A DNA stretch of 64,000 nt from assembly GCF_055900595.2 (NCBI RefSeq), contig NZ_CM148325.1; one strand, given 5' to 3'. The position numbers and the translations under genes are program-made. Within the stretch, counting starts at the first letter, position 1; each line of letters begins with the position of its first letter. Of this stretch, positions 53,524 to 56,499 are shown in pieces. Under the pieces are notes generated by a model that ran no database searches, was not told the DNA's origin, and saw nothing but the letters and a program-made list of their open reading frames with translations.

Positions 53524-54153
53524 ATGGTCGACATGAAAACTACGCATACCTCCCTCCCCTTTGCAGGACATACGCTGCATTTTGTTGAGTTCGATCCAGT
53601 GAGTTTTCGCGAGCAGGATTTACTCTGGCTGCCACACTACGCACAACTGCAACACGCTGGACGTAAACGTAAAACAGAGCATTTAGCCGGACGGATCGCT
53701 GCTGTTTACGCCTTGCGGGAATATGGCTATAAATGTGTGCCCGCAATCGGCGAGCTACGCCAACCTGTGTGGCCTGCGGAGGTATACGGCAGTATTAGCC
53801 ACTGCGGGACTACGGCATTAGCCGTGGTATCTCGTCAACCGATTGGCATTGATATCGAAGAGATTTTCTCTGTACAAACCGCAAGAGAATTGACAGACAA
53901 CATTATTACACCAGCAGAACACGAGCGACTCGCAGAATGCGGTTTAACCTTTTCTCTGGCGCTGACACTGGCATTTTCCGCCAAAGAGAGCGCATTTAAG
54001 GCAAGCAAGATACAGGCCGCTCAAGGTTTTCTGGATTATCAGATAATTAGCTGGAATAAACAGCAGATCATCATTCGACTAGAGGATGAGCAGTTTGCTG
54101 TGCACTGGCAGATAAAAGAAAAAATAGTCATAACGCTGTGCCAACACGATTAA
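53524..54153 (+). CDS. entD: 4'-phosphopantetheinyl transferase for EntB/EntF
   Basis: Trimmed to MVDMKTTHTSLPFAGHTLHF... (209 aa); the supplied ORF extends upstream across the REP. Confidence 0.9.
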   Translation: MVDMKTTHTSLPFAGHTLHFVEFDPVSFREQDLLWLPHYAQLQHAGRKRKTEHLAGRIAAVYALREYGYKCVPAIGELRQPVWPAEVYGSISHCGTTALAVVSRQPIGIDIEEIFSVQTARELTDNIITPAEHERLAECGLTFSLALTLAFSAKESAFKASKIQAAQGFLDYQIISWNKQQIIIRLEDEQFAVHWQIKEKIVITLCQHD

Positions 54154-54274
54154 TTGACAACATCTGGTACGATTCGCCCGCAGCCATCACTGACCACGGG
54201 CGAAAGTGTAAAGCAGGTGCCTTACCATCCTGACCTGACAACCGGATATGCGGGGATTGCTCCCCGCACAACGG

Positions 54275-54427
54275 CTACTTCTTCGGTTCGTAAGCGAGAA
54301 CAGCCTTAAACTCAATATTACGTTCCTTTACGGTAAACTCACACAGCGAGTCGCCGACCAGAAGCGTAAATCCCAGCACTGTCAAACATAGCACTATGAC
54401 CGCCACAAGGGCATATTTCGTCAGCAT
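54275..54427 (-). CDS. hokE: Hok/Gef-family type I toxin (50 aa), copy 1
   Basis: [50 protein letters not shown]: single TM helix, conserved Hok C-terminus; the in-frame upstream extension (to 54571) is treated as leader, not Hok. Confidence 0.88.
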
Positions 54428-54776
54428 GTTTATATTGCCTCCATGCGAAGAAGGGACTACCATCCAAATTGTCTGGTTTGGAGTGGCGGCCCCAGGGTTG
54501 ATAGAAATATCTCCTGGGGCTTCATCTTTCCAGACCTCAGAGTAAACCTGAAACCGGAAAGCTTCAGGCACCCGCCGTTATCTTACCCTTCCTTAGCAAA
54601 ATAGCTGTTTATTTATACAGTAAATCCTGTTCCGGACTTTTCATTGGTATTATCGCCCATGCCAGTTAAACGAAATCGCCCGCAGCCATTGCTGACCGCG
54701 GGCGAAAATGTAAAGCAGGTGCCTTACCATCCTGACCTGACAACCGGATATGCGGGGATTACTCCCCGCACAGCGG

Positions 54777-54929
54777 CTACTTCTTCGGTTCGTAAGCGAG
54801 AACAGCCTTAAACTCAATATTACGTTCCTTCACCGTAAACTCACACAGCGAGTCTCCGACCAGAAGCGTAAATCCCAGCACCGTCAAACACTGCACTATG
54901 ACTGCCACAAGGGCATATTTCGTCAGCAT
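54777..54929 (-). CDS. Hok/Gef-family type I toxin (50 aa), copy 2 (paralogue from the tandem duplication)
   Basis: [50 protein letters not shown]: differs from copy 1 by L13Q plus synonymous changes. Confidence 0.85.
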
Positions 54930-55371
54930 GTTTATATTGCCTCCATGCGAAGAAGGGACTACCATCCAAATTGTTCGGGTTTGGAGTGGCAGCCCCAGGG
55001 TTGATAGAAATATCTCCTGGGGCTTCATCTTTCCAGACCTCAGAGTAAACCTGAAACCGGAAAGCTTCAGGCACCCGCAGTCATCTTACCCTTCCTTAGC
55101 AAAATAGCTGTTTATTTATACAGTTGGTCTTATTTCGGACTTCTCACTACGCATTAGATCAACCGAAACTAAGCCAGTTTTTCCTTCGCCCCTCAATCAT
55201 CAAAATTCTCCGCCGCCAGCCAGCTCTGCCATAACTTGGCACATTGCAAAAGTAGCCAAACTTCTTCAGTCACAATCAGTTCACCATCACCAAAAAAAAG
55301 AAACATTCCAGAACTTCCGCATCTCCCCCGGCCGCTCCCACTTCTATACTGAAATGAAAACGCCAACATAA

Positions 55372-56499
<1,128 letters not shown>

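Follow-up and report, generated by a model that had tools for sequence, protein, structure and literature searches.

Two tandem chromosomal hokE/sokE type I toxin-antitoxin units between entD and ybdK of Escherichia coli: a probable old and polymorphic duplication

The region between entD and ybdK in the window, a 64,000-nucleotide stretch of contig NZ_CM148325.1 (NCBI RefSeq assembly GCF_055900595.2), very probably holds an old, polymorphic tandem duplication of the E. coli chromosomal hokE/sokE type I toxin-antitoxin unit. Each unit of approximately 502 bp carries its own promoter region, leader, hok open reading frame (ORF), 3′ untranslated region (UTR), and terminator. The evidence comprises the repeat itself, the ORFs, RNA pairings that are conserved, and the homology of the units with the hokE/sokE locus annotated in strain K-12 (b4415/b4835), which is the same unit at the same entD-ybdK site with 95–96% nucleotide identity to the window. 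K-12 possesses one copy together with IS186B, whereas the window possesses two copies without an insertion sequence (IS) and an L13Q substitution in the second.

The two units are flanked by entD (53533..54153, plus strand; NCBIfam NF007604 EntD equivalog, 421 bits), which converges on hokE copy 1, and by ybdK (55381..56499, plus strand; NCBIfam NF010040, 581 bits). No IS is found in the window between the end of entD at 54153 and the start of ybdK at 55381, as the initial annotation had stated. The repeat search returned two pairs of direct-repeat blocks, 54174-54473 with 54676-54975 (300 nt, 95% identity, spacing 502) and 54472-54643 with 54975-55146 (172 nt, 94% identity, spacing 503), and the change in spacing implies a single 1-nt indel between the hokE units. 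In accordance with the repeat search and alignment, the core of unit 1 (hokE/sokE copy 1, adjoining entD) spans 54174..54643 and that of unit 2 (hokE/sokE copy 2, adjoining ybdK) spans 54676..55146, both on the minus strand; unit 2 is the positional equivalent of K-12 hokE. Global alignment of the two units yields 446 identities, 24 mismatches, and 1 gap over approximately 470 nt, and a MAFFT alignment of both reverse-complemented units is collinear, in agreement with the repeat search. Direct repeats of about 95% identity had been proposed at 54160..54661 and 54662..55160, and self-alignment confirms them as repeats of 94–95% identity, with close boundaries and collinear apart from the one indel. 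Tandem Repeats Finder, whose longest period is 500 nt, returned no rows because the period here is 502–503 nt, and its output is thus no evidence against the repeat.

The units are separated by a junction spacer of 32 nt (54644..54675). Among strains this spacer is strongly divergent, measures 32–36 nt, and retains residual similarity to the ybdK-side flank. The likeness between the junction and the ybdK-side flank extends to GCCAGTT (~55180), and that between the junction and the entD-side flank is found at ACGA(T/A)TCGCCC. Since the junction resembles both outer flanks, the duplicated unit is estimated at ~502–509 bp and the event is regarded as a true in-place tandem duplication: the copies are collinear and arranged head to tail, with a junction that stems from the ends of the unit itself. 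In all eight two-copy genomes compared, this junction occupies the identical spot. The spacer type of the window is one of the rarer ones, matched at no less than 95% identity by approximately 33 genomes, and strain E200086 has a junction identical to that of the window.

Each unit encodes a Hok/Gef membrane toxin of ~50 amino acids, on the minus strand. The CDS of copy 1 (54275..54427, 50 amino acids, ..IVLCLTV..) specifies a protein identical to HOKE_ECO57 (WP_000956465.1), the HokE of O157:H7, which is present on at least 1000 contigs; the CDS of copy 2 (54777..54929, 50 amino acids, ..IVQCLTV..) specifies the L13Q variant, which is present on 179 public contigs and named HokE. RefSeq/PGAP gives the name HokE to proteins identical to those of the window. 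Both proteins match NCBIfam Hok models with scores below the curated cut-offs, and the copy 2 protein, the one submitted to the Pfam scan, aligns with PF01848 (HOK_GEF) over model positions 1–42 of 42 (E 1.3e-7). The two CDSs differ at 7 nt, i.e., five synonymous sites and two positions within codon 13, which is CTA in copy 1, CAG in copy 2, and CTG in most alleles. These results uphold the earlier description of a complete 50-amino-acid ORF in each copy, of a difference of one amino acid plus several synonymous changes, and of a duplication that is not brand new and has kept both frames open; the divergence of the copies indicates that the duplication is not recent. L13Q places a polar glutamine in the transmembrane helix of copy 2, and the main text of the FASTBAC-Seq paper contains no mutational data on the corresponding residue of R1 Hok, V15. 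Copy 2 of O157 carries L18P. Over 3.1 kb, 3 sites distinguish the window from its nearest relatives, and two of these alter the amino acid in the Hok of copy 2 (codon 13, L/Q; codon 10, V/A). Six of eight two-copy genomes have the consensus sequence as their copy 1 protein and the copy 2 proteins vary, which hints, in small numbers, that the ybdK-proximal toxin may be under relaxed or different selection. As a separate observation, the TACG context at Tyr46 is kept in both copies; A-to-I editing of hokE mRNA that changes Tyr46 to Cys is reported in a 2026 preprint (Escalera-Maurer et al., bioRxiv 10.1101/2025.08.07.668861).

The predicted full-length hok mRNAs extend over 54168..54576 for copy 1, with ends taken from R1 and K-12 homology, and over 54670..55079 for copy 2, both on the minus strand. 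In the minimum free energy (MFE) folds of these ~409-nt transcripts, the 5′ and 3′ ends are closed in copy 1 (−173.7 kcal/mol, z −7.45) as well as in copy 2 (−173.6 kcal/mol, z −6.31). Briefly, the initial 10–11 nt, GGCGGGUGCCU, pair with AGGCACCUGCU near the 3′ end, such that the tac element of copy 1 (54566-54576) pairs with its fbi element (54211-54221) and that of copy 2 (55068-55078) with fbi at 54713-54723. In the R1 paradigm this pairing is known as the tac-fbi lock, and the same closure is predicted for both hokE units in MFE and centroid folds and in the consensus fold of 18 distinct alleles; the pairs are invariant, and the helix is thus without covariation support. Rfam RF01794 matches both leaders over the full length of the model (1–157; gathering score 59), at 54419-54573 in copy 1 (83.9 bits) and 54921-55076 in copy 2 (84.4 bits). 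These matches lie on the hok-sense minus strand and therefore mark the mRNA leader, not the antisense RNA itself. Neither inspection by eye nor a strict sigma-70 consensus scan yielded a convincing hok promoter. Downstream of each stop codon is a hairpin of the form GCGGGGA-TTGC/TTAC-TCCCCGC, with GGGG-N6-CCCC at its core, at 54250..54267 in copy 1 (loop TTGC) and at 54752..54769 in copy 2. Furthermore, the copy 1 transcript folds into a 3′ terminal hairpin (54173..54204, minus strand) without a U tract, and the terminator scan places a terminator hairpin in copy 2 at 54676-54705 (minus strand), followed by TTTCGTTT; a U-rich tail after the terminal hairpin is a property of copy 2 only. The 3′ hairpins that had been noted by eye are thus present in both copies.

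The positions of the antisense RNAs were carried over from annotated K-12 sokE (b4835), which is encoded on the strand opposite to hokE and has its 5′ end 44 nt upstream of the ATG of that gene. Predicted Sok-1 (54471..54529, plus strand) is 59 nt and predicted Sok-2 (54973..55032, plus strand) is 60 nt; both fold into a free 5′ tail, of 10 nt in Sok-1 and 11 nt in Sok-2, a stem-loop, and a U tail, and a fold with a free 5′ tail has been described for R1 Sok. A putative Sok-1 promoter was recognized by eye on the plus strand, with a −35 element TTGCCT (54435-54440), a spacer of 17 nt, a −10 element TACCAT (54458-54463), and 7 nt to the start; the strict sigma-70 consensus scan reported no promoter, this candidate included. 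Sok-2 differs from Sok-1 at four positions, three of them in the 11-nt 5′ tail (tail positions 3–6) and the fourth at position 18.

The leader is less uniform. An AUG or GUG at the position homologous to the R1 mok start is absent in the hokE leaders compared, and no mokE is annotated over the corresponding stretch in K-12. A +1 frame overlapping hok (LDGSPFF...GRRLAV) is conserved in every allele, with TTG as its sole shared start. The ATG at mRNA position +51 opens a 22-codon ORF in copy 1, with a stop 29 nt before hok, runs in frame into hok as an 83-codon ORF in copy 2 and in K-12, and begins a canonical 62-amino-acid mok-like ORF in other alleles; the contrast between the two copies is due to the 1-nt indel, which lies in the target loop. 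The in-frame upstream extension of hok that the initial annotation ascribed to each copy does exist in both, but it comes from different upstream frames, starting at GTG 54571 in copy 1 and ATG 55028 in copy 2. The long extensions of hok (98 and 83 amino acids) were considered as conserved coding sequence and rejected, with indels shifting the frame between alleles. The description of two intact loci accordingly holds at the sequence level and needs qualification with regard to the differing leader frames, the lack of a canonical mok start, and Gln13 in copy 2.

By analogy with hok/sok of plasmid R1, both units would be transcribed, processed, toxic, and repressed. A stable hok mRNA would be made from the minus strand, with its translation silenced through pairing of tac at the 5′ end with fbi at the 3′ end, and slow 3′ trimming would allow the leader to refold into a hairpin recognized by the free 5′ tail of the ~60-nt plus-strand Sok. 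Sok pairing would block translation of the leader ORF and hok and lead to cleavage by RNase III; on loss of Sok, the 50-amino-acid membrane toxin would be made. The resemblance to hok/sok/mok of R1 extends to the Hok/Gef toxin family, the long mRNA with 5′-3′ end pairing, a predicted Sok with free 5′ tail and terminator hairpin, and a target hairpin in the leader, whereas the locus in the window is chromosomal, has no AUG at the mok position, and has variable leader frames.

The tandem arrangement is widespread. With a 1.6-kb query spanning the locus, matches were obtained in 5,415 of 5,426 complete E. coli genomes, and in 17 of 40 genomes sampled systematically down the ranking, two hokE genes lay under one contiguous entD-ybdK match. 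A search with the hokE CDS found 7,971 places in 5,373 genomes, with at least two places in 29 of 60 sampled genomes. Taken together, the two samples suggest that approximately 45% of complete E. coli genomes carry a tandem hokE pair. A junction-specific megablast recovered 906 genomes at a coverage of 80% or more, mostly at ~85% identity; since the spacer is too divergent, this search is unfit for counting two-copy genomes, and the CDS places were used instead. O157:H7 EDL933 has two tandem hokE genes at entD-ybdK like the window, at 95–96% nucleotide identity, with the junction at the same position and both genes annotated by PGAP. Tandem duplication has long been held typical of type I loci in the literature, and the 2026 preprint describes hok “islets”, groups of two to six hok genes in a span of 2 kb, which originate through local duplication and hold 13.5% of the chromosomal hok genes of Escherichia (bioRxiv 10.1101/2025.08.07.668861). 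The locus in the window fits the definition of at least two hok genes within 2 kb; the accessible part of the preprint does not name entD-ybdK and presents no analysis of Sok-tail divergence or IS186 targeting (bioRxiv 10.1101/2025.08.07.668861). The comparison with other genomes at this site, which had been proposed as a check, therefore found the two-copy arrangement to be common, and its presentation as unusual does not stand: the pair is common and annotated, and local hok duplication is published, such that the finding is already known. The question of dosage and cross-regulation raised at the outset is legitimate, yet general and known for tandem type I toxin-antitoxin loci.

Regarding the history of the copies, a neighbor-joining tree of 20 units shows a mosaic, with most of the entD-proximal copies in one cluster and copy 1 of the window among ybdK-proximal and single-copy alleles. 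The tree was considered as a means of separating one old duplication from recurrent duplication, and its mosaic pattern allows only the statement that the duplication is old, with exchange between copies. The Q13 allele is likewise not tied to one position. It is the ybdK-proximal copy in the window and in genome L023, the entD-proximal copy in L019–L022, L025, and L026, both copies in L021, and the single copy in L018, and the CDS has almost the same haplotype whichever position it occupies (1 synonymous difference). That L13Q is private to this strain or recurrent is disfavored by its presence on 179 contigs with this near-identical haplotype; one origin followed by spread through recombination or conversion appears more likely. 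The pattern points to an old duplication, after which copies within a genome as well as different strains probably underwent recombination or gene conversion, through which two maintained units would continue to be exchanged.

The single-copy architecture has a parallel among genomes closely related to this strain. Outside the locus, the window shares a 6-kb block at 100% identity with approximately ten complete genomes, and at hokE these relatives form a series from IS insertion in both copies to loss of copy 1. E200086 is 100%/99.8% identical to the window at the hokE locus and carries a 1,337-bp element of the IS186/IS421 family in the post-stop hairpin of both copies, in the same orientation, with 12-bp flanking overlaps at 54253-54264 and 54755-54766. 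In E400634 and Z0117EC0005, entD is followed by 91 nt from the 3′ end of copy 1, a single IS, copy 2 starting at the overlap, and ybdK, which is exactly what recombination between the two IS elements would leave behind once copy 1 is lost. The locus of K-12 is organized in the same way, with an oppositely oriented IS; its annotation gives a single hokE, sokE, and IS186B beginning 19 nt after the hokE stop codon, and so bears out the statement, in the initial annotation, of a single K-12 hokE beside an IS186. The copy 2 post-stop hairpin is occupied by IS186 in K-12, E200086, E400634, and Z0117EC0005, and in 11 of the 40 sampled genomes the locus match is broken exactly at query position 354, i.e., window position 54253. 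The built-in IS186 target accounts for the single, IS-flanked hokE of laboratory strains such as K-12: IS186 would strike the hairpin just 3′ of the hok stop codon, and the array would sometimes collapse to one copy.

The post-stop hairpin with GGGG-N6-CCCC is a recurrent IS186 insertion site. The published IS186 target consensus reportedly comprises at least four G, three to six N, and at least four C, which the GGGG-N6-CCCC of the hairpin fits.

It is possible, albeit on the unlikely side, that one or both units are decaying relics in which the ORFs remain open and toxin-antitoxin function has been lost, such that even the mention of two intact loci would be an overstatement. The glutamine in the copy 2 helix and L18P in O157 copy 2 would fit decay, as would the two nonsynonymous changes, at codons 10 and 13, among the three sites that separate the window from its relatives, the indels that shift leader ORF frames between alleles, and the repeated severing of the 3′ UTR by IS186; moreover, the chromosomal hok loci tested in previous studies did not mediate post-segregational killing, as cited in the preprint (bioRxiv 10.1101/2025.08.07.668861). 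By contrast, the copies differ by five synonymous changes versus one nonsynonymous change, and all long-range RNA pairings are kept, with compensatory changes. Furthermore, a broken hok ORF was found in merely one of ~38 units examined (the second unit of L024, a metagenome assembly), and K-12 HokE is among the previously characterized toxic controls in the toxicity assay of the preprint (bioRxiv 10.1101/2025.08.07.668861).

A second alternative, which we consider unlikely, is that the copies are functionally diverged and partly insulated paralogues, each Sok preferring its own hok mRNA. This reading is based on a segment comparison in seven two-copy genomes, for which the transcript was divided by the Sok coordinates of K-12. 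Within the 20 nt complementary to the 5′ end of Sok, the copies of one genome differ at 24% of positions, as against 2–3% in the other segments, and this target region of 20 of 405 nt contains 11 of 53 variable columns (hypergeometric P = 5e-6), a region chosen post hoc; per-genome P values for the clustering lie between 0.04 and 1e-7. Two fully compensatory AU↔GC pairs (CCAAA/UUUGG versus CCGAG/CUCGG) preserve the stem of the Sok-target hairpin in the consensus fold of 18 alleles, and the loop types differ between copies in eight of nine two-copy configurations. For the first 12 nt, the predicted duplexes are −19.4/−19.9 kcal/mol for cognate pairs versus −12.8/−10.8 kcal/mol for non-cognate pairs, i.e., approximately 7–9 kcal/mol weaker in the latter. 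Since the 11-nt tail of R1 Sok makes the first contact with the target loop, partial insulation of the hokE copies is conceivable. However, in an RNA with this much structure the loop may simply be the part under the weakest constraint, the predicted full duplexes of non-cognate pairs (−111 to −116 kcal/mol) are still very stable beside the cognate −125 kcal/mol, one loop type occurs in both copies of L021, and the approximately 15 genomes are phylogenetically dependent. Discrimination among paralogues is experimentally established for Sib/ibs, where Sib RNAs discriminate among ibs targets. The more specific proposal that the tandem hokE genes are regulatory non-identical twins, in which a selected divergence of Sok tail and loop, with compensatory changes keeping the hairpin, would insulate each mRNA from the antitoxin of its neighbor, is speculative and, in our estimation, quite improbable.

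The possibility that the repeat is an artefact of assembly, or that hok cassettes were inserted twice independently instead of being duplicated in place, is very remote: short-read assemblies do break at the locus, L018 has an N gap inside a unit, the 32–36-nt spacer is highly divergent between strains, and a change of left flank coincides exactly with the unit boundary in some genomes, but the same arrangement recurs in complete assemblies across the collection, the near-identical relative E200086 holds both copies, the junction resembles both flanks at a position identical in all eight genomes, and the 25 differing positions between the copies exclude a collapse or expansion artefact.

An old, polymorphic in-place duplication of hokE/sokE is therefore the preferred reading, and it has counterparts in other type I systems. 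The ldrABC/rdl, ibs/sib, and zorO-orzO/zorP-orzP loci likewise combine a small membrane toxin with a cis-antisense RNA and are duplicated within one intergenic region in a strain-polymorphic manner, as is hokE, although the toxin families differ. Tandem hokE at entD-ybdK is a common and already annotated polymorphism, and the finding as such is of little weight; the side observations on Sok-tail hypervariability, the IS186 hot spot with copy collapse, and the leader frames are testable and modest. The locus nevertheless constitutes a natural series for questions on chromosomal type I systems, with many two-copy alleles that differ where the antitoxin first contacts its target and with natural missense variants (Q13, P18, and A10) in the membrane helix of the toxin, and cross-talk, dosage, and decay are directly testable at the hokE array. 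If the regulatory divergence proposed above were true, each of the two units could be activated on its own, and new chromosomal hok/sok specificities would originate when the tails diverge after a duplication.

The tandem hokE/sokE pair between entD and ybdK comprises an entD-proximal unit (copy 1, 54174-54643, minus strand) and a ybdK-proximal unit (copy 2, 54676-55146, minus strand), each with a post-stop hairpin of the form GGGG-N6-CCCC just 3′ of the hok stop codon (54250-54267 in copy 1 and 54752-54769 in copy 2). In E200086, which is near-identical to the window, both post-stop hairpins are occupied by an IS, and in E400634 and Z0117EC0005, likewise near-identical, a single IS is present and copy 1 is deleted. 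The latter layout is the expected product of IS-IS recombination, and the K-12 hokE locus has the same architecture. Comparison of the window with loci L014, L015, L016, and L017 shows that insertion of IS186/IS421 recurs at these post-stop hairpins. At the hokE locus of strain 2017-02-2CC (L005), IS186/IS421 occurs three times, and one hokE is inverted relative to the other hokE and to entD; this arrangement is an IS-mediated inversion inside the locus.

The left boundary of the pair also varies. In some genomes, namely AZ148 (L010) and those whose matches to the 1.6-kb locus query begin at query position 274 (window 54173), an SDR oxidoreductase gene pair stands in place of entD as the left neighbor of copy 1. 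The break coincides exactly with the terminal hairpin of the hokE unit, which suggests that the locus was rearranged, or an island inserted, at the edge of the unit. Short-read assemblies break or scaffold over the hok repeat, and hok copy number is therefore unreliable in draft genomes; one public assembly carries an N run within a hok unit (L018, 1293-1455).

Regarding annotation, Rfam RF01794 ("sok") matches 54419-54573 and 54921-55076 (model positions 1-157) on the minus, hok-sense strand, spanning the mRNA 5′ end to the first hok codons. Since the SokE RNA annotated in K-12 is encoded by the other strand, the match is a marker of the locus, not of the antisense gene. Antisense to each hok gene, PGAP repeatedly calls a "hypothetical protein", often "frameshifted", in the annotations of L001-L013; these ORFs, at 54248-54391 and 54750-55004 on the plus strand in the window, are probably spurious calls.

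The 5′ ends of the predicted Sok RNAs (54471-54490 in copy 1 and 54973-54993 in copy 2) are complementary to a hairpin of the hok mRNA. Across 20 units from L001-L013, within-genome differences between copies are concentrated in the 20 nt pairing with the Sok 5′ tail (24% vs. approximately 3% elsewhere; P = 5e-6 in a post hoc test), and the target hairpin stem is preserved through compensatory AU↔GC changes. Furthermore, the Sok-target loop carries a 1-nt indel that alters the outcome of the upstream ATG at mRNA +51: a 22-codon ORF stopping 29 nt upstream of hok in copy 1 (54457-54525, minus strand), an in-frame 83-codon Hok fusion in copy 2 (54777-55028, minus strand) and K-12, and a 62-aa mok-like ORF in other alleles.

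In a comparison with L017, only three sites in 3.1 kb (54892, 54901, and 55319) distinguish the window from its closest relatives. Two of these are nonsynonymous and fall in the copy 2 Hok transmembrane helix, where the window has L13Q and the relatives have V10A. The copy 2 protein of O157 EDL933 carries L18P. Among L019-L026, the Q13 allele of HokE is found in the unit next to entD, in the one next to ybdK, or in the two together; the last case is L021, whose units show just 8 nucleotide differences and have a single loop type in common. The occurrence of Q13 at either position or both indicates that gene conversion or recombination links the two hokE copies.
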